Shown: positions 1-18,069 of the stretch, one piece after another
How positions within the stretch are numbered: the stretch's first letter is position 1
Layout of the letters: each line of letters starts with the position of its first letter
Assembly: GCA_964526475.1 (NCBI GenBank)
Contig: CAZGKF010000006.1
Coordinates: 25,272 to 89,271 of the forward strand
DNA from: an uncultured Bacteroidaceae bacterium
GTDB lineage: Bacteria > Bacteroidota > Bacteroidia > Bacteroidales > GCA-2748055
Reading direction: 5' to 3'
Length of the DNA: 64,000 bases
Notes under the pieces: model-generated
What the model was told of the DNA's origin: nothing
Databases searched by the model: none
The model's input: only the letters and a program-made list of their open reading frames with translations
Translations under genes and position numbers: made by a program

Positions 1-539
1 TGTGCAAAATGTCTGAACTGATCGTCGAATGAACTGATAATCAAATTTTGGAGCTCCTTTAACTTTTCCGGATCGTTAGCGCAATAGTTTATTCTTGAGA
101 TCACATCTGCCCCGAACCTAGTTTGCGGGTTTATCAAAGATCTGGTTTTCATTAAGGAACCTGTAACAAGGTTCACCAGGTAGAATACCAGGGTGGTAGT
201 TCCTATATCAACAGCAATACCCAGAGGATCAGAAGAAAGGCTTGTGCAATCTCCCGGATGAAAAGGAAGTTCAGTCAGATAAGCATGCTGGGCAACAAGA
301 ATTTCGGCTTCACCTTTATCCGGGAGTATAACTTCAGTATCTTTATTAATAGTATGAAGGCAGGAAGTAATATAACCTTCATCCCTCAAATATACTTTAC
401 ATTTCCCACAGGTGCCTTTCCCTCCGCAGGGTGAGAAAATATCAAAATTATTATCATGTAAAACTTTCAGGAGATTTACTCCTGATGGGACGGTTACAAC
501 AGTTTTTTTGTTTTTAAAATGAATGGTAAGCTTCGGCAT
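1..539 (-). CDS. Corrinoid reductive activase (RACo-like): N-terminal 2Fe-2S ferredoxin domain plus start of ASKHA ATPase domain; 3' part lies outside the window
   Basis: Manual reverse translation from ATG at 539-537 gives MPKLTIHFKNKKTVVTVPSGVNLLKVLHDNNFDIFSPCGGKGTCGKCKV... (plant-type ferredoxin Cys cluster), then GIAVDIGTTTLV and NPQTRFGADVISRI, which are typical of RACo/ASKHA activators. Same strand and 21 nt downstream of the preceding operon gene. Confidence 0.7.
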   Translation of the reverse strand, partial: MPKLTIHFKNKKTVVTVPSGVNLLKVLHDNNFDIFSPCGGKGTCGKCKVYLRDEGYITSCLHTINKDTEVILPDKGEAEILVAQHAYLTELPFHPGDCTSLSSDPLGIAVDIGTTTLVFYLVNLVTGSLMKTRSLINPQTRFGADVISRINYCANDPEKLKELQNLIISSFDDQFRHFA

Positions 540-560
540 AAGGCATTATTCATTAGATTA

Positions 561-1259
561 TTACATATACTTCATATTCCGGTAGATGCAATGTATATCG
601 CTACAGGCATCGCAAACATATTTATGAAACTTCACCTCCCTGCCTATCCCGATAACCCCGCTAACTGATTTTATCGGGTGCATAAGGGAACTCCCTGACA
701 CGCTTACTCCACAGAAATCGGGAGGAAAGAAAGAAAACAGCTTATGTTGTTCAGCTACATCCCAGGAGCAATAACCGGGACTGTATTTGTTAGTGACAGA
801 AAATCCCAGAGTTTTCATTTCTTCCCTAAGCTTCTTTTGAATCTCATCCATTGCTGCTTCTACAATGATGGAGCCTAAAAGATCGGTAATGTAACCTTCC
901 AAAATATTTCCTTCTGACATCAGTTTTTTTGAACGTTCACTTATACCTTTTCCAGCTGTACAAACGTATAATGCAAGTTTTTCGGATTTTTTAAGGTAAC
1001 GTACTACCTGTTGTCCGGCATTAAATATTCTTTCTTCAATAAGGAATGTTCCTTTATCTTTATCGATAGCAGGTTTGTCAACTATCCGGAAACCTCCCTG
1101 GATGCTGGTAAAAGAAGTTAGTGCGGAAAGTTCACTCAGGATCATTTCCGGATAAGGTTCAGGAAGCGTTTCAGGTGTATAATTACCTATCAGATGGGCA
1201 ATATATTGCATGCTGATATGAAGGTTCTGTAGTTCGTATTTAAAGCTATGAATGTTCAT
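561..1259 (-). CDS. Methionine-synthase (MetH) activation-domain-like protein (Met_synt_B12 family), standalone
   Basis: 232 aa. C-terminal half has YSPGYCSWDVAEQHKLFSFF...GVSVSGSSLMHPIKSVSGVIGIG, matching the SPGY..W..Q..F / P.KSVSG.IG signature of the B12 reactivation domain. Sits inside the corrinoid methyltransferase operon. Confidence 0.65.
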   Translation of the reverse strand: MNIHSFKYELQNLHISMQYIAHLIGNYTPETLPEPYPEMILSELSALTSFTSIQGGFRIVDKPAIDKDKGTFLIEERIFNAGQQVVRYLKKSEKLALYVCTAGKGISERSKKLMSEGNILEGYITDLLGSIIVEAAMDEIQKKLREEMKTLGFSVTNKYSPGYCSWDVAEQHKLFSFFPPDFCGVSVSGSSLMHPIKSVSGVIGIGREVKFHKYVCDACSDIHCIYRNMKYM

Positions 1260-1263
1260 AAAC

Positions 1264-2223
1264 TCACTCTATTTTAGCTGCTTCTTTGAATTTTTGCTGC
1301 AATCCTTTTACTGTCAGAATACTTGTAAAGATAATGATTTCTGTCGGGGAAGTATAATCAGGTACTTCTTTTGCAGAGTAATTGTCAAATACTGTGTGTA
1401 CAGCTAAAACCCTGTTATTGGTGAGCCTTATAAAACCTTTTATTCTGGGGCACTCCGGCATAATATCGTTTAAAAAAAAATTCAGCCCTTTTTCCGTAAG
1501 ACAGTCATGTGTACGAAGGACACATGCATTGAAATCAGGTTTCCCTTCCGATTTTTTACCGTAAAAGTTTTCTGCAGGTCTTTTCCCGTGAAAAACCGGG
1601 TTTAATATTCTTTCGTTATCTGTATTACAGTATTTTGTTTTAACAAGGTCCGCAAATGGATTCAGTTCACGGATTGATTTCTCCAGCAGCTTATAATTAC
1701 CTTTGAAAAGGTCCTGTTTGTTAAGAAGTATTGTATCGCTTATTGCGATCTGATGACGGAAGCGCGGTAAAGTATTCAGTCCTTTATAAAAAGTTGAAAC
1801 ATCGACAATGCCAATTATATGTTTAAGAACTAATGTATTGCGAATATTTTGCGCTTGCAGCAATTCAATTATATTTACAGGGTCTGCCAGTCCGGAAGCT
1901 TCCAGAAAAATAATCTCAGGTGTATAATCATCAATTAATTTTTCAAGGGTTTGAGTAAAGTTGTTGAGTTGACAAACGCAGAAAACAGACCCATTATTAA
2001 TTTCCACAAGCCTGAACTCACTGTTTACCGATTTCAGTTCTTTTCCGTCAATACTTGTTGGGGCAAATTCGTTCTGGATTACTGCAACACGTTTCTGATC
2101 CCCTATAGTTTGAAGGATATTCTTTAAAAGGCTGGTTTTTCCGCTACCCAAAAAACCTGTGATAAGAATGAAATGAACCGTTTCAGACTTTGGATTCAAG
2201 ATATTCTTTAATTTTTTCTTCAA
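1264..2223 (-). CDS. CobW/G3E-family GTPase (putative metallochaperone)
   Basis: 319 aa with P-loop ITGFLGSGKTSLL near the N-terminus and overall CobW-like layout. The ORF has no in-frame ATG before the P-loop. The track start at 2223 is TTG and another TTG lies at 2199, so the start is uncertain. It overlaps the upstream gene end. Confidence 0.8.
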   Translation of the reverse strand: MKKKLKNILNPKSETVHFILITGFLGSGKTSLLKNILQTIGDQKRVAVIQNEFAPTSIDGKELKSVNSEFRLVEINNGSVFCVCQLNNFTQTLEKLIDDYTPEIIFLEASGLADPVNIIELLQAQNIRNTLVLKHIIGIVDVSTFYKGLNTLPRFRHQIAISDTILLNKQDLFKGNYKLLEKSIRELNPFADLVKTKYCNTDNERILNPVFHGKRPAENFYGKKSEGKPDFNACVLRTHDCLTEKGLNFFLNDIMPECPRIKGFIRLTNNRVLAVHTVFDNYSAKEVPDYTSPTEIIIFTSILTVKGLQQKFKEAAKIE

Positions 2224-3541
2224 TTTGTGAAACCGGGGGTATATGTGAAATAAATTCGATGTTTCCGTCGATCACTATAGTAGGAAGGTTTTGAACTCCC
2301 AGGGAAACCATCATCTGCACTCCCTCTTTTTCTTTTATCCTGTGTTCCTTAAAAACTACCTTATCTTCAAATGCCAAAGCGGCTCTTTTAACGGCATTCA
2401 CCATATACTGGCATGGGGCGCAAGAAGATGAGTCGAGAGTGATGATATCGATGATCACTTTGTCTTTAATCCAATGACTGCTGAGGTCAAGTTTTTCCAC
2501 TTCATGGACAGGAGCTTCTGATGCTCTTATTTTTCCCTGCATCAACTCATCATGTACAATTTCTGTGACTGCAACAAGGTTTTTTACCGGTGTTGCCATT
2601 GGCAGGTCGCAACCAGGTGCAAGGATAAATCCTTTTTTACCCCCAGTATCCATACATGCGAGAGCTTCTCTTCTCGAATCCTCCTCATCACCCATAAGTA
2701 ATACAACAGTCAGTTTCATGTTTCCTCCAAAGCTGACCTGGTTTTTCAGTGCCATATCGCGTACATAATCCAGCGGGATGTTTTCATCGATAGAAATATT
2801 GTCGGGGCGGCAATTACACATAACTTCGATATTCTGTTTTGCGTTTCCGCATACAAAAAATGAACTTAAGGAACCTGATTCCCTGATAAAATCAAAGATC
2901 TGTTTTACATAAGGGGAGACGAAAGTTTCAAAAGAATGTGGATCAATCTGACTCGTCATAGGGTCAACAAGAGCAATAACATCGCAGCCGGATTCTATAT
3001 AATTCCCGGACATAAATATGGCCATACCGGTCGCGAATTGCATAATTTCATGCACTTCTTCAGGATTCTCGAACATTTTCATGAAGATATCTGTTCCCAG
3101 GAGGTGCAAGGCAAGAGTAAACGGGCCGGTAATAAGACCATACAGTGCAAGATCAGGATGCTGGCTGCGAAGTTCTTTTGCAGCATTAAAAACAACAGGC
3201 AGTCGTCCATCAGTGGAAGAGGGTATTTTCAGATCTTTAATGTTAACTCCCTCAGCGAGCGGGTGAGAGATAACTGCCGGAGGATTATCTTCAGCCCAGA
3301 TAAGCTGGCATCCCAAAGATTCAGCTTCAATCTGGAGGTCGAAGACTACCGGTATCCCGTCAGGATTATATAATTCTACGGCTTTGTTAACTCCTTTAAC
3401 AATATTTTCAGCAGATTTAAGATATTCTGTTGCTGTTAATCCCAAAATATTTCCTGCATGACAGCCGACAAAAGGCACCCATGGAATACGCTCAACTTTT
3501 TCGAGTCGTATAGCTTTTTTTATCAATTCAATTCCCTGCAT
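2183..3541 (-). CDS. Uroporphyrinogen-decarboxylase (URO-D) family methyltransferase (MtaA/MtbA/CmuA-like) fused to a C-terminal thioredoxin-like CxxC domain
   Basis: 452 aa. Residues about 1-340 resemble methylcobamide methyltransferases (IPWVPFVG..., ILAPGCDLP near the end of the domain). Residues about 360-452 have a thioredoxin/glutaredoxin-like pattern (VIIDIITLDSSSCAPCQYM ... LPTIVIDG). Confidence 0.75.
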   Translation of the reverse strand: MQGIELIKKAIRLEKVERIPWVPFVGCHAGNILGLTATEYLKSAENIVKGVNKAVELYNPDGIPVVFDLQIEAESLGCQLIWAEDNPPAVISHPLAEGVNIKDLKIPSSTDGRLPVVFNAAKELRSQHPDLALYGLITGPFTLALHLLGTDIFMKMFENPEEVHEIMQFATGMAIFMSGNYIESGCDVIALVDPMTSQIDPHSFETFVSPYVKQIFDFIRESGSLSSFFVCGNAKQNIEVMCNCRPDNISIDENIPLDYVRDMALKNQVSFGGNMKLTVVLLMGDEEDSRREALACMDTGGKKGFILAPGCDLPMATPVKNLVAVTEIVHDELMQGKIRASEAPVHEVEKLDLSSHWIKDKVIIDIITLDSSSCAPCQYMVNAVKRAALAFEDKVVFKEHRIKEKEGVQMMVSLGVQNLPTIVIDGNIEFISHIPPVSQIEEKIKEYLESKV

Positions 3542-3555
3542 TTCAATAAAAAATT

Positions 3556-4932
3556 TTAAAGTCCGTACTCTTCTTTAATAAATTTAGTTTGATCTGTCAC
3601 TTTTAACATTTCCCCGATAAAATCGTCCTCATTTGACGGAATGGTGGAAAGTTCGTCACGTAGCATATCGATCCATAAATTTTCCATTTCCGATGAAAGT
3701 AATTTTTTCGATTTAATAGCATCCTCAATTAATTCCAAGCCTTTCAGAGCGCCTTTTACTCCGCTTTCCACATATGTTTTGCCCTTGATCATTTCTTCAG
3801 CTATCTTAATAACATTTTCCGGTGCAAGGATAAAAGCCTGTGGATCGAAATACATATCGGATTCAGTAAGGTGCTTTTGAAGATTCAGAATATCAGCTTT
3901 ACCACCTTTGATTGCCTGATTAAAAAGACGGGTATCGTATTCAAGTTGTTCAAGATAAACTGTTGGAGCCATTTCAGCCAGAAGCTTAATATTCTGTACA
4001 GATTCATTGCTCCAAAGGTCTGCGCATGCCCCTGCAATATTCCCCAGTGGGCTCAGGTGCGCACAGGCAGAGGTTTTGCCTTCCATGGAAACAGGGATAC
4101 CTGCAATTGCTTTAAGGTAAATTCCTTCATAGCCGCAATCCTTATCAGGCCCTTTTGCTCCTTCCTCCACAGCCACAATTGTTCTCACCACACTGAGAAT
4201 ACGAACTACAGCAGCAAATATTTTAGGGATGTATTTTTTTTCTGCAAGCACCATTGCGGTATTCCCAAAACCGCATGCAGTATCTCCTCCTGCAATTTTC
4301 CCCTGAGCATCTGCTATACCCACAATCTTTTTCCACAACATTCTCATATCCCTGACACCGAGAATACACAGAGAGAAGACAACTTCCTTTATATTACAGT
4401 TCATCAGCGCGTCATCGAATAATTCCTTTCCTCCTGTGCTTTCAATGGATAACAGGTCTCCTCCGGCCTTAGCTCCGCGTTCAAAAAGTTCGAGCATTGG
4501 ATTAAGAAAATGTGAGGAACGTTGTTTTGGCGGACGCTCAAACTCCCGTAAATCGTTAGGTGTAAGTCTTATTTCACTGGGAATGCCATGTTTCTGGAAA
4601 TAGTCTTCACAAACCTCATTCATTGCTTTTACAATATCGACCCCATAATCAGGGTTTTTTGTCATTTCAGGGAGAGTTTCAAATTCGAATATTATTCCCT
4701 GAGAATATAAATGTACACCTCTTTCCAGTGCTCCCTTAACGATATCCCTGTATTGAATAATTATCGAACCAATGGTATCATTATTAATGTTCATAGGGGG
4801 TAAGGTGAAGTTTAACTCGGGGTAAACTCTGCCTCCGCCAATTACAATCCCCCTGGCAGTTTTTACAGGGAAAGGGGTATGACCAAAATAAAGATCTTCT
4901 TTAGCTGGTATAGCAAGTTTTGTATATTTCAT
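3556..4932 (-). CDS. mtaB: MtaB-family methanol:corrinoid methyltransferase
   Basis: 458 aa. It aligns by eye with Methanosarcina MtaB over most of its length: GGDLLSIESTGGKELFD, GGDTACGFGNTAM, GPDKDCGYEGIYLKAIAGIPVSMEGKTSACAH, LWSNESV. The Cys positions matching the MtaB zinc ligands (as I recall them) are present. Confidence 0.8.
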   Translation of the reverse strand: MKYTKLAIPAKEDLYFGHTPFPVKTARGIVIGGGRVYPELNFTLPPMNINNDTIGSIIIQYRDIVKGALERGVHLYSQGIIFEFETLPEMTKNPDYGVDIVKAMNEVCEDYFQKHGIPSEIRLTPNDLREFERPPKQRSSHFLNPMLELFERGAKAGGDLLSIESTGGKELFDDALMNCNIKEVVFSLCILGVRDMRMLWKKIVGIADAQGKIAGGDTACGFGNTAMVLAEKKYIPKIFAAVVRILSVVRTIVAVEEGAKGPDKDCGYEGIYLKAIAGIPVSMEGKTSACAHLSPLGNIAGACADLWSNESVQNIKLLAEMAPTVYLEQLEYDTRLFNQAIKGGKADILNLQKHLTESDMYFDPQAFILAPENVIKIAEEMIKGKTYVESGVKGALKGLELIEDAIKSKKLLSSEMENLWIDMLRDELSTIPSNEDDFIGEMLKVTDQTKFIKEEYGL

Positions 4933-5125
4933 GCGTACAAATATTAATTATGTTTTTAAAAATCAATAAGTTATATTTCCCAAAGGGCAAATGGGCAGGG
5001 AATCCTCATAGTTTTTCTGTCCTTGTTGTGTACGATAGTGCATGAAGGTTTCATAGCAGTATAATATTTTAAATTGTTCAACAAAAATCTTATAGCTCAA
5101 TGTAAATAATTGAACTTAATGAAAC

Positions 5126-5160
5126 AAAAAAAGTAAGCTTCTGTGAAGCCCGTATTTACT
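5126..5160 (-). terminator. Hairpin plus T-run (attenuator/partial terminator candidate) between the corrinoid protein gene and mtaB
   Basis: Minus strand reads agtaa-atacgg-GCTTC-aca-GAAGC-ttact followed by tttttt. It lies in the only long gap of the operon (307 nt). Confidence 0.3.
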
Positions 5161-5239
5161 GCTTATTCTGCTGTAATTATCTTTTAAAGGAAAATTCAAG
5201 AATGTAAAATACTTCTTACTTTTTCCTTTGGCTTTTCTT

Positions 5240-5908
5240 CTAAGATGCCAGGGCATTAAGATATTCAACAGCTCCCTGAGGATCAGGACTATAAAAATCC
5301 GCATTTATTTTTTTGCAGAATTCTTCCGATACCGGGGCTCCACCGATACATACCTTCGTATCCGGAAGTTTATCCTTGATTGTTTTTACAATCTTTTCCA
5401 TATTTATCATGGTGGTAGTAAGTAAGGCAGACAGACCGATGATACTTCCGGGATATTTTTCAGCTTCCGTCAGGAACTTTTCTGCATTTACATCCACGCC
5501 AAGGTCAATAACTTCATAACCATTTCCTTCCACCATCATGGCAACCAGGTTTTTTCCTATATCATGCAGATCGCCTTCTACGGTTCCGATAAGAAAAATT
5601 CCTTTTCTTTTTGCTGCTCCGCTTGCAAAGTAAGGTTTCAGATGTGCCATAGCTGCGCTCATAGCCTTTGCAGACATTAATACCTGGGGCACAAAAACCT
5701 TGTTTTCACGGAATTTGACACCAACCTTTTGCATCCCGATAATTAGCGCTTCGGACAGGATATCAGCCGGTTGTGCTCCTGCATCCAATGCCTGGAGTGT
5801 TAATTCGTCAGCCCCGTCCATTCCTTTCATATCGGGAGGATAGGGAGAGATTTTGTTGATTTTTCCAAATTCAACACAGTGCGCGATTTGTTCAAATAGT
5901 TCTTTCAT
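5240..5908 (-). CDS. mtaC: Corrinoid (cobalamin-binding) protein, MtaC-like
   Basis: 222 aa with an N-terminal B12-binding cap helix bundle plus a Rossmann-like B12 domain. DxHxxG motif (DLHDIG, encoded 5555-5572), then SAL (GLSALLTTT) and GG (CIGGAP) motifs. Confidence 0.85.
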   Translation of the reverse strand: MKELFEQIAHCVEFGKINKISPYPPDMKGMDGADELTLQALDAGAQPADILSEALIIGMQKVGVKFRENKVFVPQVLMSAKAMSAAMAHLKPYFASGAAKRKGIFLIGTVEGDLHDIGKNLVAMMVEGNGYEVIDLGVDVNAEKFLTEAEKYPGSIIGLSALLTTTMINMEKIVKTIKDKLPDTKVCIGGAPVSEEFCKKINADFYSPDPQGAVEYLNALAS

Positions 5909-5932
5909 TTTTATACACGATTAAATTAAATT

Positions 5933-6961
5933 TTAAGTTTCTCTTATAATAAGTTGAGGTTGAATAATATGTTGGGCAGGAATATTATCATTACCTTTAT
6001 CAAGAAGGCTTACAGCATATCGGGCCATTTCATCATACCGGCAATCGATTACTGTTATAGCCGGTTGAAATAACTCTGTGATTTCGGTATTCCCATAGGA
6101 AACCAGGGAGATTTGATCCGGTGTTTTAATATTAAATTTTTTTAACCGGCCAAGTGTCTTCACTGAATCTGTATCAGAACAAGACAAAATGCCGCGGATA
6201 TTATTCTCTACAAGCATTTCCAAACTGAGCTCCAGAATTCCCGTAGTAACAAAAACCTTACGCCCGGGATATATTTCCTTTGCTAAATTACGGAATGTCT
6301 GTTCAATATGTTCGTTCAATAAATTACGACCCTTCCAGATATCGTTTGTTACCAGCAGAAAGTTACCATTACTTCTGCTGGCGAGGTAATCCATGGCACG
6401 TTTTACACCAAGGTCATAACTCTGTATCACATATCTGAAATATGATCCCGCCATGGTATTGTCAATGAGAATGACCTTTGTTTTACCGGATATCAGTTTA
6501 CGGTAAAAATCAGATGTACTGGTTTCGTTAAAGTTCGGGATAATAATTATTGCTTCATACCCTTCCATTATCATTGTACTTACCAGCTTTCTTTCTTCTT
6601 CGGGGTCGTTATAATCGAGGAAATATGTTAACTGTCTGTTTCTTTTTGTTGCTTCAACCTTAAGATGACTGATAAGTTCTTCAATATTGGAAGAATAGAA
6701 AGGAAGAATTACTCCCCATATTTTTCGGATAGCAACCTGGCTGGTAACAAAAGAGCCTTTCCCTGCTTTTGAAATGACCAGAGATTCCTCGCTCAGCTTT
6801 TTTAAAACCAGTTTGGCTGTTTCCCTTGATACCCCATGACGGGTTCTTATTTTATTGATAGAATCGACTTTATACCCCGGGGGCATCTCCTGGGACAGGA
6901 TTTTTTTCCTGTAATGATCAGTCAGTTTCCTGTAAACCGGTATAAATTCTTCTTTATACAT
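5933..6961 (-). CDS. Transcriptional regulator with AraR-type architecture (GntR winged-helix N-terminus plus LacI/PBP1 sugar-binding-like C-terminus)
   Basis: 342 aa. N-terminus YRKLTDHYRKKILSQEMPPGYKVDSINKIRTRHGVSRETAKLVLKKLSEESLV is GntR-like. The remainder is a periplasmic-binding-protein type 1 fold pattern (IIIIPNF..., LVSYGN). Confidence 0.7.
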   Translation of the reverse strand: MYKEEFIPVYRKLTDHYRKKILSQEMPPGYKVDSINKIRTRHGVSRETAKLVLKKLSEESLVISKAGKGSFVTSQVAIRKIWGVILPFYSSNIEELISHLKVEATKRNRQLTYFLDYNDPEEERKLVSTMIMEGYEAIIIIPNFNETSTSDFYRKLISGKTKVILIDNTMAGSYFRYVIQSYDLGVKRAMDYLASRSNGNFLLVTNDIWKGRNLLNEHIEQTFRNLAKEIYPGRKVFVTTGILELSLEMLVENNIRGILSCSDTDSVKTLGRLKKFNIKTPDQISLVSYGNTEITELFQPAITVIDCRYDEMARYAVSLLDKGNDNIPAQHIIQPQLIIRET

Positions 6962-6984
6962 TGGATATAAATGTGCCGCAAGTT

Positions 6985-7041
6985 ATCACAATTTTTTTAA
7001 AAAGCATCACATCCCATCACAGTTTAGAGTATTGCATCACA
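6985..7041. promoter_or_regulatory. Four direct ATCACA (TGTGAT on the gene strand) repeats upstream of the regulator/methyltransferase operon; candidate operator array
   Basis: ATCACA starts at 6985, 7006, 7016 and 7036, giving spacings of 21, 10 and 20 nt (about helical phasing). Located 24-80 nt upstream of the regulator ATG at 6961. Confidence 0.3.
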
Positions 7042-7135
7042 TTTTATTTTACATATAAAAACTGATGAATTAGTTTTTTTGTGGATGTTTTGAGGGGGTA
7101 AATGCCTTTTGCTGGCAGGCAGTTGGAATTAGAGG

Positions 7136-7915
7136 TTATCTATTATGTCTGGTGAAGTAATCATCAATTTCATGTCTAAGTTCAACACCTATTCTTTCAA
7201 AAATATTAAGCAAATCAATATATGCACCTTTACCACCTAAGAAATCCCAGAACTCATCAGCAACCATAAGTTCATTTTCAAGATCCAACATACCTCTCAT
7301 TGTCCATCTGTTATAAGGTTGGGGTTCATATGGATTATATGGAATGGCAATATAACTTTGAACATTAGCTTCGGGGTTAACAGCAAGAGTGGCTGCTATC
7401 CACTCAAGTAGAGTCCTTTTAAATTCTTTGAAACCTCCGGCATTAGGCTTGGCGGTTTTGATGTCGATCAGATAAATATTGTCTTCATTATTCATTAATT
7501 TAATATCCACTTTTGTAAGTTTTACTGTTCTCATTTCACCCACCTGGCAGACTGCTCTGATAGTCGATATTTCATCAGGTTTATGTGGGAAAGTCTTAGC
7601 AGTTGACAAATTATCCATAATGGTTTGGATAACCTTGTGTGCTTCCGATGAAATTAGTGTTCCGGCAATTTGTTGAGATTCCGCACTGGTAAAATTTGCA
7701 GATGCTAAAGCTATTGCAACAGGTTCAAAAATACTTGTGCCAAAGTTTGTATTTATGGAATGGATAAAGGAAAATAATGCCATTCTATCTTTGCCTAATA
7801 ACCTTGTATGAAAAGGCATTGAGGCGGGTTCTGGATTGTATTTTTGAAATTTATGTCTTAAACTGTTTCTTAAAACAGTTTCAATATCTTGAATTTTCGA
7901 AAGAGATATTGCCAT
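7136..7915 (-). CDS. Type II restriction endonuclease, PD-(D/E)XK type, TdeIII-like
   Basis: 259 aa, immediately downstream of the methylase and overlapping it by 35 nt. VDIKLMNNEDNIYLIDIKTAKPN fits a D...(D/E)xK nuclease core. The N-terminal MPFHTRLLGKDRMALFSFIHSINTNFGTSIFE resembles TdeIII-family proteins as I recall them; this was not searched. Confidence 0.55.
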   Translation of the reverse strand: MAISLSKIQDIETVLRNSLRHKFQKYNPEPASMPFHTRLLGKDRMALFSFIHSINTNFGTSIFEPVAIALASANFTSAESQQIAGTLISSEAHKVIQTIMDNLSTAKTFPHKPDEISTIRAVCQVGEMRTVKLTKVDIKLMNNEDNIYLIDIKTAKPNAGGFKEFKRTLLEWIAATLAVNPEANVQSYIAIPYNPYEPQPYNRWTMRGMLDLENELMVADEFWDFLGGKGAYIDLLNIFERIGVELRHEIDDYFTRHNR

Positions 7916-9494
7916 AACTATTTGATTTTAAATGAAAAATAATCTCAGAATATGCTCCTTTATCCTTTTCTGTACGATTTAAAACTGGTCTTTTAAACTG
8001 GTGAATAATTTGCATCCCGGCATTTTGCGCAATGACAGGGTACATATTATACTTATCATTTGCAACAAGAAAGATGTCATAATCATCAACCAGGAATTTT
8101 TTACAATTGTTTAATACATTACTTATTCCCTGAATATAGCTTTGTTTAGCTTCTCTGCCCTGACCTTTATATAAAGGGCCTATTTCCAGTTCATCCTTTC
8201 TTTCAAAACCAAATAAGTCATAGGCATATGCGTGTTGTTCGTGATAATCAATCAAACCGACATATGGAGGAGAGGAAAAAATTCCTTTTATTTTTTGCAT
8301 TTTTACTAATTTGGAGAAAGAGGGATTTATTATTTTAAGTTCATCGATAATATTAATAGTACGACTATCACCGGTTATGCAAATCTGTGTTGTTTCAGTT
8401 CGAAATTTATTATATTGTGCCAGGCGTTTAATAGTATCCTGTGAATATGTCTCCCACCATTTTAGAATTGAAAATAGGGGTTTGCATATTTTACCATGTT
8501 TGGCACAATAATATGTAGATGTTATTGGTTCAACCAAAGTAGCTAAATCAGCATGTGTAGTTGCTCTGCATGAACGTATAGTTCTGCTTAGTATTACACT
8601 TACGATTTTTCTTATATTAATATTTTCAATTTTTTGGATTTCATTATTTACAAAATGAATCTCTTCTCTGATATGTGGTGAATACCACTTATCTAGAAAA
8701 GTGTTAGATTTATCCTCGCCCAGTTTAATATCGTAGTCTTTTACAAGTTTCTGAAAGATTGGGGCAAATTCTTTTTCCTTTTCATTTCCGTATATTTTTT
8801 CATTTATTTCTCCATGTCTTAATCTATATTTATATTCAGGCACCGGGAAATAGTTATTGTTAAAAACATATAAGGTTTGCAGGAGTTTTTCTTCAAAATC
8901 AAGAGTACGTGAATTTGTTAGAAAAATTTTAAGTGCTTTGGTGATTCGGGTTATTTCCATTTGGACATCGACAAGATTATATTGAGCAACTTTACAATTA
9001 CCAATCATTGTATTAAAGATTGAAATATCAATACCAACAGCGTGCATCCCTAATTCAGATGCTTGGACCATTGTAGTTCCACTTCCTGAAAATGGGTCAA
9101 GAACAATATCTCCCCTTTTGAAATATGTTTCAGTTTTAAATTTATCTGTGTGATCATCGAGGAAATATTCGACGAGTTGAGGGATAAATTTGCCTTTATA
9201 CGGATGAAGCCGGTGAACATGTTTTGTAGTTTCTGCTTCTTTAAATTGGTCAAATGATAATGCCCAGTTTAAATCATCACCAAGTTGATCCCTCCAGGAA
9301 GTTTCACGGTATCTATTGTGTGATTTGTAATAATTGATAAGGTCTTCTTTTAAAACATGGGAAGTGCCATTATCCCCCACCTTTTTAATTCGGCCATATT
9401 GTATAAGATAGGAAATATTTGAAGTGGTTACGTTTTTCCCCATATGCTCACTTGCCCATTTGCTTGCTTCTTTTATAGTAAGTAATTTATCCAT
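7881..9494 (-). CDS. DNA methyltransferase (N4-cytosine/N6-adenine class) with N-terminal HTH-like domain
   Basis: 537 aa. AdoMet motif LDPFSGSGTT lies upstream of the catalytic motif FSSPPYVG, separated by a long putative target-recognition region. SPPY is more typical of m4C enzymes. Confidence 0.8.
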   Translation of the reverse strand: MDKLLTIKEASKWASEHMGKNVTTSNISYLIQYGRIKKVGDNGTSHVLKEDLINYYKSHNRYRETSWRDQLGDDLNWALSFDQFKEAETTKHVHRLHPYKGKFIPQLVEYFLDDHTDKFKTETYFKRGDIVLDPFSGSGTTMVQASELGMHAVGIDISIFNTMIGNCKVAQYNLVDVQMEITRITKALKIFLTNSRTLDFEEKLLQTLYVFNNNYFPVPEYKYRLRHGEINEKIYGNEKEKEFAPIFQKLVKDYDIKLGEDKSNTFLDKWYSPHIREEIHFVNNEIQKIENINIRKIVSVILSRTIRSCRATTHADLATLVEPITSTYYCAKHGKICKPLFSILKWWETYSQDTIKRLAQYNKFRTETTQICITGDSRTINIIDELKIINPSFSKLVKMQKIKGIFSSPPYVGLIDYHEQHAYAYDLFGFERKDELEIGPLYKGQGREAKQSYIQGISNVLNNCKKFLVDDYDIFLVANDKYNMYPVIAQNAGMQIIHQFKRPVLNRTEKDKGAYSEIIFHLKSNSYGNISFENSRY

Positions 9495-9792
9495 TTGATT
9501 TATTTTTTATGTACATGACTTTTCTCTCGGCAACTTTCAGAATCCTTATATCTATATCCTCATCAATGATCCTGTAAGCTATTAAATCACTAAAAAGTTC
9601 ATTGAGCAGTTCCTTTTCTTCCAACCTGAAAAACTCTGCAGCTTGTTTTATAAATTCCCGTGAAGGCTTCCTTTCATTTCGTTCAATTTTAGATATAAGA
9701 GAAGAATCAATTTTCAACCTGGTTGATAATTCTCTGAGAGATAACTTTTCTTTTTCTCTCATACTTCTAAGATGCTCCCCAAAGGTGTGCAT
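9487..9792 (-). CDS. XRE-family HTH protein, probable R-M controller (C) protein
   Basis: 101 aa. LSLRELSTRLKIDSSLISKIERNERKPS is a Cro/C1-type HTH. It is the first gene of the cassette, and its end overlaps the methylase start by 8 nt. Confidence 0.6.
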   Translation of the reverse strand: MHTFGEHLRSMREKEKLSLRELSTRLKIDSSLISKIERNERKPSREFIKQAAEFFRLEEKELLNELFSDLIAYRIIDEDIDIRILKVAERKVMYIKNKSNG

Positions 9793-9836
9793 ATATGAGT
9801 ATTTTTTTTTTAAAAGTACAAAAATTCATTTTCTCT

Positions 9837-9851
9837 GGACAAAATATGTCC
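9837..9851. promoter_or_regulatory. GGACA-N5-TGTCC palindrome upstream of the C gene (candidate C-box/operator)
   Basis: The sequence ggacaaaatatgtcc is a perfect 5-bp inverted repeat, 45-59 nt upstream of the C-protein ATG at 9792. Confidence 0.3.
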
Positions 9852-10253
9852 ACATTTTTATAAACAACTTTTCCCCAATGATCAGATATGTTTTTCCTTT
9901 AGAATATTTATTAACATAGATTAACAAATGAATTAAGTTTGCGGTAAGTCCTAAATGCTAATAACTAATATCAATTTATCAAAAAAGTAAGCCGAAAATT
10001 TTAAAAGGTTTTTAATTAAACTTCTATTTATTATTTCTGCTGTCCGGTAATAACAAAATAATAGATACGAGCTTACTTTCGGTGAACTTACGGAAGGAAA
10101 ACTCATATGGTAAACCAGATACAAATGATTTATAAATGCATATACAAATGTTAAAATAACACAAAAATGACTATTTAGATTGAATATAGTAATTAAAATG
10201 TAATAAAAAATAAAAAAATGTAATAAAAAATAGGAAATATATTACAAAATGAT

Positions 10254-10261
10254 TATTTTTG
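10254..10261 (+). promoter_or_regulatory. Bacteroidota -7 promoter-like element TAnnTTTG upstream of asnB
   Basis: tatttttg lies 34 nt upstream of the ATG at 10295. No clear -33 TTTG was seen. Confidence 0.25.
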
Positions 10262-10294
10262 TAACGAAAATAGATAAAACAAATTAAAACTATT

Positions 10295-11881
10295 ATGTGC
10301 GGATTTACAATTTATACTGGAAGCAACAAAGAATCAAGGCTACATGTAGCGGCTGATTTTCAGAAGCTGAAATACAGGGGTCCTGATAATACAGTAATGC
10401 TTGATCTGGGCAATGAAGGCTGGATGGGTTTTCATCGCCTGAAAATAATGGACACAAGTGAACGGGGTAATCAGCCTCTGGTTTACAGGAATATTCACCT
10501 TATCTGCAATGGTGAGGTTTATAACTACCCACAGCTTCGGGAAAGATATGAAAGCAGTTTTGATTTTCAGTCAGATAGCGATTGTGAAGTGATCATTCCT
10601 CTTTTTCTTGAAAAAGGGATAAGGCAAACGGCACTTGAATTAGATGCGGAATTTGTGTTTGTAATATATGATTCTGTTCAGAAAAAATACTTTGCCGCAC
10701 GTGATCCGGTTGGAATTCGTCCAATGTTTTACGGCTACAGCAAGGAAGGCAACATTATGTTCGCCAGTGAGATGAAAGCACTTCATTCAATGTGTCCGGA
10801 GGTAAAACCCTTTCCTCCGGGCCATTATTATGATGGCGAAAAGTTCCTTCAGTACAGGGACCCTTCTGCGGTTACAAAATACTCTGATGATGAGATTGAA
10901 CAGGTATTTAAAAAGCTCAACCATTACCTTACAAAAGGAGTAGAGAAGCGTCTTACTTCCGATGTGCCGGTTGGATTTCTTTGTAGTGGAGGCCTTGATT
11001 CCAGTCTTGTCTGTTCCATAGCCGCACGGATGTTGAAAAAACCTATCAAAACCTTTGCAGTTGGAATAGAAGACGGGCCGATAGACACCAAATATGCACG
11101 GATAGTGGCCGATTACCTTGGAGCTGATCATACCGAAGTGCTTTTTAGTAAACAGGATATTTTCGATACTCTCAGTACACTTATTTATAATATTGAAACC
11201 TGGGATATTACTACCATACGCGCATCCATGGGAATGTACCTGGTTTCAAAATATATTGCTGAGAATACCGGTATTAAGGTTTTGATGACAGGTGAGATAA
11301 GCGATGAGATTTTCGGATATAAGTATACCGATTATGCTCCTACTCCGGAGGCATTCCAGAAAGAAGCCGAGAAAAGACTGAATGAAATATATATGTATGA
11401 TGTGCTTCGTGCCGACCGGTCCATTTCTTCAAACGGACTCGAAGCCAGGGTTCCTTTTGGGGATCTTGATTTTGTGGAGTATGTTATGAGTATAAAACCT
11501 GAGTTGAAGATGAACTTTACCGGGATAGGGAAATATTTACTTCGAAAAGCTTTTGAAGAGGACTACCTGCCTCATGATATTCTTTATCGCGAAAAGGCTG
11601 CTTTCAGTGATGCAGTTGGACATAGTGTGGTTGATAGCCTCAAAGCCTGGGCTGAAGAATTATACAGCGAAGAAGATATGGTGACAGCCCGGTTGAAATA
11701 TAAGCATGCCCCACCCATTTCAAAGGAATCGCTAATGTACAGGAATATCTTTGAGTATCATTTCCCGGGACGCGCATCTGTAATAAAAGATTTCTGGATG
11801 CCGAACAAAGAGTGGAAAAACTGCAATGTTAACGATCCAAGCGCAAGGGTACTGCCGAATTATGGGAAAAGTGGGTCGTAA
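10295..11881 (+). CDS. asnB: Asparagine synthetase B (glutamine-hydrolysing)
   Basis: 528 aa. N-terminal MCGF (Ntn Cys2 glutaminase), PP-loop SGGLDSS, and overall AsnB layout. Confidence 0.85.
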   Translation: MCGFTIYTGSNKESRLHVAADFQKLKYRGPDNTVMLDLGNEGWMGFHRLKIMDTSERGNQPLVYRNIHLICNGEVYNYPQLRERYESSFDFQSDSDCEVIIPLFLEKGIRQTALELDAEFVFVIYDSVQKKYFAARDPVGIRPMFYGYSKEGNIMFASEMKALHSMCPEVKPFPPGHYYDGEKFLQYRDPSAVTKYSDDEIEQVFKKLNHYLTKGVEKRLTSDVPVGFLCSGGLDSSLVCSIAARMLKKPIKTFAVGIEDGPIDTKYARIVADYLGADHTEVLFSKQDIFDTLSTLIYNIETWDITTIRASMGMYLVSKYIAENTGIKVLMTGEISDEIFGYKYTDYAPTPEAFQKEAEKRLNEIYMYDVLRADRSISSNGLEARVPFGDLDFVEYVMSIKPELKMNFTGIGKYLLRKAFEEDYLPHDILYREKAAFSDAVGHSVVDSLKAWAEELYSEEDMVTARLKYKHAPPISKESLMYRNIFEYHFPGRASVIKDFWMPNKEWKNCNVNDPSARVLPNYGKSGS

Positions 11882-11955
11882 ATAGCGTATGAACTGATCT
11901 CATCCATTTGGCAGGATGAAAAGAAAAATCCGGAAGAGGCAGTAAGATTTAATTT

Positions 11956-14682
11956 TCATTTATATCCGATTTTTCTAACAAAGGCATCATAAAATCCTTT
12001 ATCTTTCAATTTCAACAGATGCTTTTCTGCATCAGATATGTTAAAGAAGATGCCGGATGAATAACGGTAGAAGCCATCATTGCCGCGTGTCAGAATGGTC
12101 TTATCGGTATCTTTGAAATAATCCGGTGCAGGTGGTTTTATTAGGGCACTGAATTGCACAGTATAGTAATAACCTGCGCTATCTTCAGATTCATGTTCCC
12201 CTGTCTGATCCCAATACCTGGATAACTGGTTGACAAATGCATCAGTGAAGCCATTTTTTACATGAAAGGGCAGTTGTTTCTGTGCTTCTTCGAAGCTGTC
12301 GAATACACCTGTAATATATCTGAATATTCCATCATTTCCTTCAATCCTGAAAACCTCATCTGTTAATTTGAAGAAATCATCACTTACAGGCACTTTCATG
12401 GCAAGAAGCTGAATGATGAAAGGCCCTTTTAATTCTGAAAGTTCAGGTACAGATGGTTTTGTGAGAACGTTAAAGTCATTCTCACTAATTATTCTGCTGT
12501 CAGGAAAACCCGTATCTATCACCTTGTTAAGGAATTCAATGGCTTGCTGCCTGTTAAAGTAATTCTCTGTTGCATAGATATATCTATTGCCTGTTTCATA
12601 TAGTTTAACACTTTGATTCTCCATTTCTGAGGGGATAGTATTTTTCGCACTACCCGATTCCTCCAGTATTACGTAGTAGTTTCTGTAGGCAGAAGATTTA
12701 AGGTTTTCAGGTACGAGTATTTCCTCCATAACAATATCTTTATCACCTGTATTAATAAGGTTTATTTCAACCCGCCTGTTGTATCTTCTTCCTTCGGGGC
12801 TATCGGCGCCATCTTCTCTTTTATTACGTGCGATAAAATCACTTTTCCCGGCAGCTTTGGAGATAAAACTTTCCCTTGGTATTCCTTTTGAAACCAGATA
12901 ACTGACCACTTCTCCCGAACGCTTATGTGCAAGCTGGAGATTATATTCTTCACTACCTATGGCATCGGTATATCCGGTTACTTCTACATAAAGGTCAGGA
13001 TTTTCAGATAGCAGAATGTAAAGTTTTTCAAGTTCATGTTTTGCTTCGTCTGTAAGTCTGAAGCTGTCAAAATCAAAAAGCACACCTTTAACCAGGGCGT
13101 ATTTACCCTCACTTACGGAGGATGGAGTAAGTGAAGTTCCAATCTCAATGTTTTTTGAACGATGCCGGGGAAGAATACTGATAAATTCTTCGGCAGGGTC
13201 ATATCCCTCTGCCTTAACAGTTAGCTGGTATTTTCCCGCTGGTACTTCCACGTTAAATTCACCTGTCTCCGACACAGGAATGTTTTCAGCAATGGGTTTC
13301 TTCTTTTCTGTATCTATAATGCTTACAATGGCTGATTCATCAAGATCAAACCTGTCTTCAGTTGTTATTGTACCGCGGAAAGCGTACCTCAAATCACTGT
13401 CTTCAGGTTCCAGGTCTAAGAGAACGATTTTGTGTTGAGGCAAAACATCACCCTCTGAAGAAAAAAGTGCCTGTTTACCATCTTCGAGAGGAACAAAAAA
13501 AAGATCATCATCACTTGTACTAATCGGATATCCCAGATTGGCAGGGTACGACCAGCTATTATTGGGAAGTCTGGTTGAATAGAATATATCAAATCCACCC
13601 ATGGTGGCATGACTCATGGAACTGAAGTAAAGTGTTTTTCCGTCGGCTGACACAAAAGGAGTTTCTTCACTGTAAATATTGTTCACCGGTTCCCCAATAT
13701 TTAAAGGTTTCTGCCAGTCACCCCCTTCATCGCGCAAAGAATAATATATATCCAGTGCTCCCATACTTCCCGGTCGGTCACTTGTAAAATACATCATTCT
13801 TTTATCCCGGGTAAGAGACGCGTGAGTCTCGTTGAATTTGGTGTTTATGATCTTTCCCAGAGCCTGAACAGGAGTCCATCTTTGACCTTCGTAGTAACTT
13901 ACATACAAATCCCAGTTGAAATCCCTGTTAACAGCCAGATATAATTCCGTGGCATCATATGTAATGGAGCAAAGATTATAATTCCCGTCAATTTCCAGTT
14001 GATCATTTATCATCTCCGGTTCTGTCCAACTTCCGTTTTTCAGTTTGCTCATCATGATGGCTGAGTAGAAAGGTTTGTATGTCATGAAAACAATAATGGA
14101 ATCTTTCTCCGCAAAAACAGCCCTGTAATTGGAATTATCCGGACTAACCATTTCAAAGACGGGAAGGAAGTCGAGAGCAAGAGTGTCGTTAATATACTCT
14201 TTTGCCAGCTCAATTGAAAAAATCTGCCTGTTAATAAACTCCACTTCAGCTACATCAGATATTTTCATTACTCTCTTATACATTTTGTAATATTCAATAG
14301 CTTTATCAAACTGATTATTTATATGATATGCTCTTGCCAGTGCATAAAAAGCAACTCTGGGGGCATCGGTTTCCCTGTATGATCCTTCCCTGTAACCGGC
14401 AGAGACATTGCTGACAGCTTTCTCAAGATGGGGGATGGACATTTTTTTCCGGCCGTTTATGCTTAAATAGCATGCCCCTACAAGGAAATGCAGGTTTGCG
14501 TTGGATGGGTCTGATTTAAGCATCTCATTATAAAGAAATGCAGCTTCCTTATATTCCTCGTTCAGCATGAAATATTCGGCTTCAAGGAAATTGGTTTTAA
14601 AAGTTTTTTTGTCTTGCGCCTCTGATATCTTTAGAAGGCAAAAAAAAGCTGCAATAAGTATGAATTTTAATGTAATTCTCAT
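11956..14682 (-). CDS. Large envelope protein: signal peptide, TPR, TolB-like beta-propeller, Ig/carboxypeptidase-regulatory-like domain, OmpA C-terminal domain and two SPOR-like repeats
   Basis: 908 aa. OmpA motif VTGYTDAIGSEEYNLQLAHKRSGEVVSYL. WD40-like TolB repeats (MYFTSDRPGS, LYFSS). Two C-terminal repeats of the SPOR pattern (GNDGIFRYITGVF..., GNDGFYRYSSGIF...). Confidence 0.8.
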   Translation of the reverse strand: MRITLKFILIAAFFCLLKISEAQDKKTFKTNFLEAEYFMLNEEYKEAAFLYNEMLKSDPSNANLHFLVGACYLSINGRKKMSIPHLEKAVSNVSAGYREGSYRETDAPRVAFYALARAYHINNQFDKAIEYYKMYKRVMKISDVAEVEFINRQIFSIELAKEYINDTLALDFLPVFEMVSPDNSNYRAVFAEKDSIIVFMTYKPFYSAIMMSKLKNGSWTEPEMINDQLEIDGNYNLCSITYDATELYLAVNRDFNWDLYVSYYEGQRWTPVQALGKIINTKFNETHASLTRDKRMMYFTSDRPGSMGALDIYYSLRDEGGDWQKPLNIGEPVNNIYSEETPFVSADGKTLYFSSMSHATMGGFDIFYSTRLPNNSWSYPANLGYPISTSDDDLFFVPLEDGKQALFSSEGDVLPQHKIVLLDLEPEDSDLRYAFRGTITTEDRFDLDESAIVSIIDTEKKKPIAENIPVSETGEFNVEVPAGKYQLTVKAEGYDPAEEFISILPRHRSKNIEIGTSLTPSSVSEGKYALVKGVLFDFDSFRLTDEAKHELEKLYILLSENPDLYVEVTGYTDAIGSEEYNLQLAHKRSGEVVSYLVSKGIPRESFISKAAGKSDFIARNKREDGADSPEGRRYNRRVEINLINTGDKDIVMEEILVPENLKSSAYRNYYVILEESGSAKNTIPSEMENQSVKLYETGNRYIYATENYFNRQQAIEFLNKVIDTGFPDSRIISENDFNVLTKPSVPELSELKGPFIIQLLAMKVPVSDDFFKLTDEVFRIEGNDGIFRYITGVFDSFEEAQKQLPFHVKNGFTDAFVNQLSRYWDQTGEHESEDSAGYYYTVQFSALIKPPAPDYFKDTDKTILTRGNDGFYRYSSGIFFNISDAEKHLLKLKDKGFYDAFVRKIGYK

Positions 14683-14888
14683 ACATCTTTACTGAACGGA
14701 TGTAAAAATAATAAAAGTAGAGTATTGAATCAATGTAAGATATGAACATTCCTGAAATACCTCTTAAAGACAAAAGAAGATTGGTCGTTGAACAGATGAA
14801 TTGTTGAATGAGCTGAAGACCTGATTGGATTAAAATATGCAAAAAGGGTTACAAATAAGGATTCTCCAATTAATTAATAAGTTAACTA

Positions 14889-15370
14889 CTATCTCTGCTT
14901 CTTTTTCAAAACAGATTCATAATCCCACCCCTGTTCTTTACATAGCACCCTTACATGAGAATCCCATGTGGGCTCACCGGGATTTCTGATGGATCCGAAA
15001 CAGTCTATTGCAAGGTATTTCAACGCTTCTCCCTTGTCGGCTGCAATGCTGTGCCACATGCCAACAGGTATCCTTACTACATCACCAGGGACTACCAGCA
15101 TCTTTCGGGGAGAATCTTTGCCAATAATAAGTGTGCCTTTACCTTCAGTAATATAAAAAATTTGTTCCGTGTCATCATGTTTATGCAGGGGAGGGGCTTT
15201 CTCCGGTTCTATTACAACAAAAAAACTTCAGAATGCCTTGCTTCCGAACGATCCATGACAAGATCATTAATATGTGTGGGGAAAGCGTAACGGGTTAAAT
15301 CCTGCGTTGAAAACACATATTTAACAGATAGAGAACTTTTGTTTTCACTTTGAGAGTGGTTCTGATTCAT
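14889..15370 (-). pseudogene. Cupin-domain protein gene interrupted by a frameshift in an A7/T7 homopolymer
   Basis: Manual translation from ATG 15370 gives MNQNHSQ...RHSEVFLL*, with the stop just after the run at 15219-15225. Adding one T restores ...EVFFVVIEPEKAPPLHKHDDTEQIFYITEGKG..., which is continuous with the 70-aa track ORF at 14889-15101. Confidence 0.65.
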
Positions 15371-17994: not shown

Positions 17995-18069
17995 ATACCA
18001 ACTGATAACTAAACCTAAAAATTAATAAAACCATCGCCTATGAATGCATAAAAGCCCAAAACTAAAAAA

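Follow-up and report, generated by a model that had tools for sequence, protein, structure and literature searches.

A putative corrinoid-dependent methyl-transfer operon of probable mosaic origin, with an MtaB-family methyltransferase, in a Marinilabiliaceae-like Bacteroidota contig

Contig CAZGKF010000006.1 of an uncultured Bacteroidaceae bacterium (assembly GCA_964526475.1) was analysed over a stretch of 64,000 nucleotides, hereafter the window. At its left end lies an operon whose predicted products include a corrinoid (B12-binding) methyl-carrier protein, an MtaB-family methanol:corrinoid methyltransferase, and a second methyltransferase in which a URO-D/MtaA-like domain is followed by a C-terminal thioredoxin-like domain (URO-D-Trx). 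With a probability of roughly 0.55, this is a functional corrinoid methyl-transfer operon of mosaic origin, in which MtaB was acquired by a six-gene cassette, and which would serve a glycan fermenter for assimilatory salvage of methyl groups into one-carbon (C1) and methionine metabolism. The native, Marinilabiliaceae-like cassette would consist of an AraR-like regulator, the corrinoid protein, URO-D-Trx, a COG0523/CobW-family GTPase, a protein resembling the activation domain of MetH, and a RACo-type activase. Between its corrinoid-protein and URO-D-Trx genes, this lineage would have received an MtaB of a clade found in Bacteroidales and other members of the Fibrobacterota-Chlorobiota-Bacteroidota (FCB) group. 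The methanol-to-corrinoid half of the predicted pathway is well supported by the family assignments described below.

The MtaB of the window matches the Pfam profile PF12176 almost completely (residues 2-457 on profile positions 3-460, or 458 of 460 positions; cut-off 25 bits), and aligns end to end with Methanosarcina barkeri MtaB (PDB 2I2X; E=2.3e-78). In the latter, Glu164, Cys220, and Cys269 (M. barkeri numbering) are the zinc ligands. All three are kept in the window protein as E164, C220, and C266; the Cys positions that the original prediction had equated with zinc ligands thus hold in the alignment, together with the Glu. These ligands are invariant in the clade members aligned (13/13), and across family representatives they are found in 30/30, 29/30, and 28/30 sequences. 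The nearest named representative is the MtaB of Eubacterium maltosivorans (47% identity), and the window protein is 35% identical to the M. barkeri enzyme. A neighbour-joining tree groups it with sequences from Bacteroidales, Ignavibacteria, and other FCB members in one coherent clade, to which the acetogen sequence is adjacent.

This clade is large. The whole MtaB family forms only 613 clusters at 50% identity in an exhaustive search of representatives, and a word-indexed search with the window MtaB returned 6559 homologues, the best 120 of which share an identity of 63% or more with it. Members of the clade occur in at least 542 species-level genomes, mostly of Prolixibacteraceae and other Bacteroidales, including the cultured Sunxiuqinia indica. 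Further carriers are termite-gut Bacteroidales metagenome-assembled genomes (MAGs), Melioribacter, and MAGs labelled Spirochaetales, Chitinispirillaceae, and Calditrichota. An MtaB in Bacteroidota is therefore not the oddity for which it had been taken, and annotation pipelines already name clade members methanol-corrinoid methyltransferase. The system is common in environmental Bacteroidota genomes and functionally undescribed as far as the literature was searched: within that search, whose coverage was incomplete, nothing specific was found on the function of Bacteroidota MtaB or on methanol-dependent methionine synthesis.

The mosaic origin is suggested by what surrounds URO-D-Trx elsewhere. 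Among 40 non-redundant loci tabulated in a survey of URO-D-Trx, 34 are without MtaB and contain the corrinoid protein, COG0523 protein, MetH-activation-like protein, and often RACo. MtaB is present in six (the window, L004, L021, L090, L092, and L119; L-numbers are labels of the related public contigs or loci compared with the window), which show at least three arrangements and draw on two subclades of MtaB. In Labilibaculum antarcticum and Saccharicrinis fermentans, genes for an AraR-like regulator, corrinoid protein, URO-D-Trx, CobW, Met_synt_B12 protein, and RACo follow one another in the order of the window minus MtaB, headed by regulator homologues that also have 342 aa (53% and 48% identical). 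The corrinoid protein of the window is 86-88% identical to those of the MtaB-less cassettes L085 and L086, but shares only 59-65% identity with MtaC from Prolixibacteraceae-type mtaB loci. The latter loci are composed of one or more AraC regulators, MtaC, often a URO-D protein of 335-350 aa with a canonical His-Asn-Cys...Cys site, MtaB, a CobW with the motif GCICCS, and a RACo that is only about 34% identical to that of the window. URO-D-Trx itself is highly conserved (at least 69% identity over the best 120 homologues), and occurs in cultured Marinilabiliales of the genera Carboxylicivirga, Labilibaculum, Labilibacter, Saccharicrinis, Marinifilum, Marinilabilia, and Puteibacter. Because most metagenome loci, as well as cultured Labilibaculum, Saccharicrinis, and Carboxylicivirga, have cassettes that lack MtaB, because the corrinoid protein is nearer to those of such cassettes than to Prolixibacteraceae MtaC, and because both AsnB (77-78%) and URO-D-Trx (74-75%) point to Carboxylicivirga-like relatives, the sequences are most economically read as a native cassette that took up MtaB between its corrinoid-protein and URO-D-Trx genes.

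In L085, the closest MtaB-less cassette, 11 nt separate the corrinoid-protein gene from that of URO-D-Trx. The AT-rich spacer of 307 nt that precedes mtaB in the window would accordingly mark the upstream junction of the insertion. It holds a weak, terminator-like hairpin (5151-5135, minus strand) and an open reading frame (ORF) of 27 codons, and shows only chance-level similarity to the spacers of other loci and to repeats in the window. A riboswitch or other structured RNA was considered and rejected, as no Rfam family matched at gathering scores in the whole window, nor at E<=1 in positions 1-7600. A compositional sign of recent transfer was likewise rejected. The GC content of mtaB (0.405) and that of its third codon positions (0.342) do not differ from those of the neighbouring genes, and composition therefore gives no date for the insertion.

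The arrangement is not an assembly artefact. L001, a public contig of independent origin, matches window positions 1-14932 with 100% identity, and the gene order of the operon recurs on the 1.9-Mb contig L119, which together exclude a chimera. The best named matches of AsnB are from Bacteroidales MAGs (80-81%), Carboxylicivirga (77-78%), Thermophagus (77%), and Alkalitalea (75%), and the window contains Bacteroidota-type genes for FecR, an STN-domain SusC, SusD, a GH88-like protein, and a sulfatase. On these relatives and this gene content, the contig is assigned to a Marinilabiliaceae-like member of the Bacteroidota with a marine-type genome, in agreement with the phylum originally proposed.

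The seven genes of the operon are intact ORFs of the same lengths as their homologues (the last one when completed on L001). They are tightly packed and co-directional on the minus strand from position 6961 to 1, and the operon runs on leftwards past the window start (Table 1). Measured in order of transcription, the spacers are 24, 307, 14, -41, 4, and 21 nt, which bears out the short gaps and overlaps, with one gap of 307 nt, that had been described. The overlap between the URO-D-Trx and COG0523 genes is reduced to -17 nt if the start of the public gene call on L001 is used. Profile searches with Pfam upheld every family assignment of the original prediction.

Table 1. Genes and spacer of the operon, in order of transcription, with window positions.
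Feature	Position	Strand	Supporting match or remark
Regulator, AraR-like, 342 aa	5933..6961	-	Pfam GntR HTH, 33.2 bits; Peripla_BP_3, 54.5 bits
Corrinoid (B12-binding) methyl-carrier protein, 222 aa	5240..5908	-	Pfam B12-binding_2 and B12-binding
AT-rich spacer, 307 nt, 29% GC	4933..5239	-	Between corrinoid-protein and MtaB genes
MtaB-family methanol:corrinoid methyltransferase (MT1), 458 aa	3556..4932	-	PF12176, 514.8 bits, E=2.8e-154
URO-D/MtaA-like protein with C-terminal thioredoxin-like domain (URO-D-Trx), 452 aa	2183..3541	-	URO-D, 208.8 bits, E=1.5e-61; Thioredoxin_3
COG0523/CobW-family G3E GTPase, 311-319 aa	1264..2223	-	Pfam cobW, 135.9 bits; weak CobW_C match
MetH activation-domain-like protein, 232 aa	561..1259	-	Pfam Met_synt_B12, 32.7 bits (cut-off 25)
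RACo-type activase, N-terminal 179 codons, cut by window edge	1..539	-	Pfam Fer2 and Raco_middle

On L001, the genes to the left of the window, beyond RACo, are a thioredoxin gene on the opposite strand, a gene for a CCA-adding enzyme, and unrelated genes. Directly upstream of the regulator (7136-9792, minus strand), the window encodes a HinfI-like restriction endonuclease (259 aa), an N6/N4 DNA methyltransferase (537 aa), and a small HTH_3 protein. Further to the right, a polysaccharide utilisation locus (16882-26825, plus strand) comprises a FecR anti-sigma factor, an STN-domain SusC, SusD, a 616-aa GH88/GH127-like protein, and a sulfatase; its target is probably a sulfated glycan. A member of the tocopherol cyclase family (PF14249; E=1.6e-20), unexpected on a Bacteroidota contig, is encoded at 54141-55241 (plus strand; 366 aa).

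A four-step relay can be proposed from the families represented. In the first step, RACo, through its 2Fe-2S domain and with ATP, would reduce the Co(II) form of the corrinoid protein to Co(I). In the second, methanol would bind at the Glu-Cys-Cys zinc site of MtaB and its methyl group would pass to Co(I), giving CH3-Co(III); this step, for which homology and the conserved ligands speak, is the best supported of the four. In the third, URO-D-Trx would hand the methyl group to an acceptor, most likely tetrahydrofolate (possibly in a reversible manner), or else a thiol such as homocysteine. In the fourth, the MetH-activation-like protein may provide a second repair route, presumably dependent on S-adenosylmethionine (SAM), while the COG0523 protein would support the loading of a metal or cofactor. 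The role of the relay would be methyl salvage into the C1/methionine pool rather than energy-conserving methylotrophy, and glycans bearing methyl esters or methyl ethers would be one source of the methanol.

The corrinoid protein has the motifs of such a carrier in its two domains (PF02607 and PF02310), namely the motif DLHDIG (DxHxxG, for His-on binding) at residue 113, SAL at 160, and GGAP at 189. It matches specific NCBIfam models (the "methyltransferase cognate corrinoid protein" model, similar to TIGR02370) only generically, in all cases under the cut-off. RACo, when completed on L001, has 499 aa with Fer2, Raco_middle, and RACo_C_ter (ASKHA) domains, and is AcsV-like in NCBIfam. The regulator combines a winged-helix domain (PF00392) with a sugar-binding domain of the LacI/periplasmic-binding-protein type (PF13377 and PF13407). 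It is thus sugar-sensor-like in its domains, as had been supposed, but it came with the cassette, whose other versions sit among sugar-utilisation genes.

The URO-D-Trx protein is closest in fold to MtaA. By sequence, its best match in the Protein Data Bank is Methanosarcina mazei MtaA (4AY7; E=1.6e-26), and its AlphaFold2 model (predicted local distance difference test score of 91) also matches 4AY7 best, with a TM-score of 0.88 on the target and 23% identity. It carries the invariant motifs SSFFVCG, APGCDL, and SCAPCQYM, the last with the CAPC of the thioredoxin-like domain. The gene is MtaA-like in this sense, but it does not encode a canonical MtaA: a Phe replaces the zinc-binding His, and the scores remain under the NCBIfam cut-offs for MtaA/CmuA (TIGR01463; 155.7 vs. 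235.4) and for MtaA_Meth (148.2 vs. 400). In corrinoid systems, the substrate-side methyltransferase (MT1) usually varies and the methyl-corrinoid:acceptor methyltransferase (MT2) is constant. Since MtaB or a URO-D paralogue is the variable partner here and the corrinoid protein, URO-D-Trx, and CobW are constant, URO-D-Trx is placed on the acceptor side and MtaB in the MT1 slot; URO-D-Trx is accordingly presumed to be the MT2, and its best structural match, MtaA, is likewise an MT2 enzyme. This MT2 belongs to a distinct enzyme family, and the description of the operon as a complete MtaABC system is therefore not well founded.

Compared with MtaABC of Methanosarcina (2I2X, 4AY7), the window system shares the MtaB fold with its Glu-Cys-Cys zinc ligands, a corrinoid protein of B12 cap and Rossmann domains with DxHxxG, a URO-D-fold partner methyltransferase, and nearby COG0523 and activase genes. 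In contrast, at 35% MtaB identity, its MtaB, MtaC, and MtaA counterparts all miss the NCBIfam equivalog cut-offs, the partner methyltransferase is without the His zinc ligand and has a thioredoxin-like domain, the activase is a bacterial RACo rather than RamA, and the bacterial host shows no sign of coenzyme M. Type 1 mlp clusters likewise contain URO-D/MtaA-like methyltransferases, a corrinoid protein, and RACE/RACo, and have no tetrahydrofolate methyltransferase (Kountz and Balskus, PMC10418091). These clusters, however, possess both Mlp2 and Mlp3 with His-Cys-Cys sites, are devoid of MtaB, come for the most part from Firmicutes, and have been connected with the metabolism of methyl-S or methyl-Se compounds (PMC10418091), whereas the window has a single URO-D protein with Phe-x-Cys...Cys, plus MtaB, in Bacteroidota. 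Membership of the operon in type 1 mlp clusters was rejected on gene content and metal site, the clusters being compared by their description.

Several observations weigh against the proposed methanol-salvage operon. In the His-x-Cys...Cys zinc motif of MtaA, the His is replaced by Phe in URO-D-Trx (FFVCG...APGCDL), invariantly in 40 family members. No URO-D-type enzyme is known to methylate tetrahydrofolate. No homocysteine methyltransferase (PF02574), pterin-binding methyltransferase, or other acceptor gene is present in the operon or in the 6.4 kb to the left of the window, where the original prediction had proposed to look for an acceptor enzyme. In the AraR-type cassettes L083, L085-L087, and L098, URO-D-Trx is the sole methyltransferase, and in L094-L096 and L111 it is accompanied only by a homocysteine S-methyltransferase (HcyMT), so that URO-D-Trx would have to load the corrinoid. 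Because of these two kinds of cassette, the direction of URO-D-Trx is ambiguous unless the enzyme is bidirectional. A bidirectional role of the tetrahydrofolate type would reconcile all contexts, but is not known to have a biochemical precedent for this fold.

On the side of MtaB, the score against the methanogen equivalog NF040651 of NCBIfam (385.7 bits) does not reach the cut-off of 720, and methanol specificity is an assumption from homology at 47% identity. It can be reasonably inferred, since this 47% to the Eubacterium MtaB exceeds the 34% between the Eubacterium and Methanosarcina enzymes, both of which we take to be methanol enzymes. Two accessory proteins also deviate from expectation. 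The GTPase has the P-loop GFLGSGKT, but the CxCC metal motif of COG0523 is replaced by CVCQ, and the activation-like protein has KYSPGYC, with Lys for the Arg of the RxxxGY-like motif.

The deviation of the GTPase leaves the label of a probable Zn chaperone unproven, because the COG0523 protein is here without CxCC. The proteins of the URO-D-Trx-linked loci L004 and L021 have CVCL at this site, while the CobW of other mtaB loci has GCICCS. The COG0523 gene follows that of URO-D-Trx in 27 related loci, and in Methanosarcina COG0523 genes adjoin mtaABC and ramM (PMC2770081). The activation-like protein covers only positions 119-254 of the 273 in its profile, corresponding to the C-terminal half, and matches the Thermotoga maritima MetH activation-domain protein (PDB 1J6R) with E=9.4e-6. 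In 25 other homologues the motif reads RYSPGY (or RFSPGY, RYYPGY, RYNPGY), except in L016 (SYSPGY). The family has four conserved Cys residues, one in (R/K)YSPGYC and three in a C-terminal CxxCxxxxC, which are absent from T. maritima TM0269 and may form a metal or Fe-S site. The co-occurrence of RACo, a MetH-type module, and a COG0523 protein, originally regarded as unusual, is the normal make-up of the URO-D-Trx cassette.

A rather doubtful alternative holds that the operon is a methanol-driven, folate-independent methionine synthase, that is, a disassembled MetH in which MtaB stands in for the pterin module and the corrinoid protein for the B12 domain. Reactivation would fall to RACo and the Met_synt_B12-like protein. 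Homocysteine would be methylated either by URO-D-Trx or by an enzyme of the PF02574 or core-MetE-like type whose gene lies elsewhere; if the latter, URO-D-Trx would act as an additional MT1, on the substrate side, for another donor. This idea derives from related loci. PF02574 genes are found inside 14 of them, and ten of the 40 URO-D-Trx cassettes have a stand-alone enzyme of this family. In L045 (8001-11668; Bacteroidales bin82, CP070654.1), MtaB, corrinoid protein, HcyMT (238 bits), and Met_synt_B12 form a four-gene operon, verified with Pfam, that on paper is a methanol-driven methionine synthase; L017 and L024 similarly have corrinoid protein, HcyMT, and Met_synt_B12 beside MtaB. In L117 (3095-13762), a group of genes for core-MetE-like PF01717, DUF6580, GFO/IDH/MocA, URO-D (386 aa), and a sugar transporter of the major facilitator superfamily (MFS) is divergent from, and adjoins, one for corrinoid protein, MtaB (78% identical to that of the window), Met_synt_B12, and RACo.

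With these HcyMT and core-MetE genes and the constant presence of the MetH-activation-like protein, these related systems resemble methionine synthases that have been taken apart and are supplied by alternative donors, and L094-L096 and L111 (URO-D-Trx and HcyMT only) would be complete only if URO-D-Trx loads the corrinoid. Core-MetE enzymes that take the methyl group from methylcobalamin are reported (PMC7005905). There is precedent for the dispersed arrangement in the split MetH of Phaeobacter, with reactivation by a RamA-like DUF4445 protein (PMC5764234), and in Ruegeria MtgBCD, whose corrinoid protein is common to betaine demethylation and methionine synthesis (PMC12478193). Both resemble the window in having a separate corrinoid protein and a separate RACo/DUF4445-type reactivator; the corrinoid protein can serve a catabolic donor as well as methionine synthesis, and stand-alone PF02574 and PF02965 proteins are encoded in loci related to the window.

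The window differs from these systems in its donor-side enzyme, where MtaB or URO-D takes the place of MtgB or a pterin domain, and in the absence of a homocysteine-binding module from the operon; a MetE-like gene is also missing from it and from the 6.4 kb to the left. Moreover, HcyMT accompanies only the long URO-D-Trx subfamily (10/10 cassettes), which has 539-541 aa with about 90 extra residues between the URO-D and thioredoxin-like domains (L094-L096, L100-L108, L110, L114, L021), and not the short form of the window. The His-x-Cys...Cys zinc site that is the signature of thiol-methylating URO-D enzymes (PMC10418091) is lacking in URO-D-Trx, and one operon with two substrate-side methyltransferases and none on the acceptor side would be unusual.

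It is improbable that the Bacteroidales/FCB clade of MtaB uses an O-methyl donor other than free methanol, such as an O-methylated sugar or a small methyl ether. An AraR-like regulator heads the operon, AraC-family regulators flank MtaB in 42 of 80 loci, and genes for a sugar MFS transporter, GFO/IDH/MocA, and RhaT are found in neighbouring positions; the identities to the MtaB of methanol users are only 47% and 35%, and the equivalog cut-off is missed. On the other hand, MtaB matches its family end to end, with the zinc ligands and many other columns invariant across the clade, and it is with the URO-D paralogues, not with MtaB, that the sugar-linked genes co-vary. PF12176 is not known to have an established physiological substrate other than methanol. 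Trace use of ethanol is reported (PMC12450230).

Dissimilatory, energy-yielding methylotrophy, in which methyl-tetrahydrofolate would be converted to CO2 or acetate as in acetogens or Desulfofundulus, is very improbable: the MtaB/MtaC/MT2/RACo architecture is that of methanol-grown acetogens and D. kuznetsovii (PMC5770442), but genes for the Wood-Ljungdahl pathway, carbon monoxide dehydrogenase/acetyl-CoA synthase, pterin-binding proteins, or methylene-tetrahydrofolate conversion are not found near the operon (window or L001), the carriers, which have SusC/D loci, degrade glycans and are fermentative or facultative, and the neighbourhoods link to methionine-synthase modules and sugar genes. 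The acetogen and sulfate-reducer systems (Eubacterium limosum/maltosivorans, Acetobacterium woodii, Moorella, and Desulfofundulus kuznetsovii) are nonetheless the source of the nearest named MtaB (47%), share RACo-type activation, and also pass the methyl group into bacterial C1 metabolism (PMC5770442). From these, the window differs in its lack of Wood-Ljungdahl context, in the URO-D-Trx fusion as MT2, in the probable assimilatory role, and in the addition of a MetH-activation-like protein and an AraR-type regulator.

Assimilatory methyl salvage remains the preferred reading of the window operon, but the wider URO-D-Trx cassette offers the more interesting lead. Besides URO-D-Trx, 14 of the 40 loci contain a variable URO-D paralogue; such paralogues next to sugar-uptake genes, or else a stand-alone HcyMT, are what URO-D-Trx is usually found with. 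In L082, L088, L092, and L117, such paralogues, with the motif H-S-C-G...His, stand beside sugar transporters. Carboxylicivirga sediminis (GCA_018156225.1) has two MtaB-less cassettes amid sugar-utilisation genes (L120:5089-11048 and L121:3534-11077). The first consists of galactokinase, URO-D (337 aa), corrinoid protein, URO-D-Trx, CobW, and Met_synt_B12, preceded by aldose epimerase, RhaT, a sugar kinase, and 2-keto-3-deoxy-6-phosphogluconate aldolase, and followed by a glycoside hydrolase of family GH2. The second contains AraC, RhaT, URO-D (415 aa), RhaM mutarotase, corrinoid protein, URO-D-Trx, CobW, and Met_synt_B12, and adjoins a GH29 fucosidase and SusC/D. These neighbourhoods suggest that the cassette serves anaerobic demethylation of O-methyl sugars.

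As a tentative extension, the corrinoid protein/URO-D-Trx/COG0523/activation-like module, with or without RACo, could be an oxygen-independent demethylation platform of glycan-degrading Bacteroidota. Its substrate methyltransferases would be swappable (URO-D paralogues for O-methyl sugars, e.g., 6-O-methyl-galactose and 2-O-methyl-fucose, and MtaB for methanol), and the methyl group would pass to tetrahydrofolate or homocysteine. A possible analogue is the P450 6-O-methyl-D-galactose demethylase of marine Flavobacteriia, which removes methyl groups that block glycan use (PMC6292453; PMC10033563). The parallel would lie in the gene context, as the cassette's variable URO-D lies beside galactokinase, RhaT, mutarotase, and fucosidase genes. 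The P450 reaction depends on oxygen and releases formaldehyde, whereas the cassette would transfer the methyl group via cobalt independently of oxygen. In an incomplete literature search, no paper on corrinoid-dependent demethylation of methyl sugars was found, and only the P450 route was described.

The breakdown of pectin, xylan, and algal galactans releases much methanol and many O-methyl groups, and in anoxic settings methanogens, acetogens, and certain sulfate reducers are usually assumed to consume this methanol. From the genomic evidence, it seems that Bacteroidota acting as primary fermenters, which are dominant glycan degraders in sediments and guts, can capture the methyl groups themselves via a B12-dependent relay, and these polysaccharide degraders can probably salvage methyl groups from methanol without oxygen. 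If this is true, less methanol may reach methylotrophic methanogens, Bacteroidota would have an added demand for B12 and zinc, and the relay may give them a folate-independent source of methyl groups for methionine. If the demethylation platform is real, it would do anaerobically what the P450 methyl-sugar demethylases do, and would lead methyl groups of glycans directly to methionine. How anaerobes handle methylated sugars is a long-standing gap, the oxygen-dependent P450 reaction being the only known route, and the presence of the cassette in several cultured Marinilabiliales makes the question directly testable.

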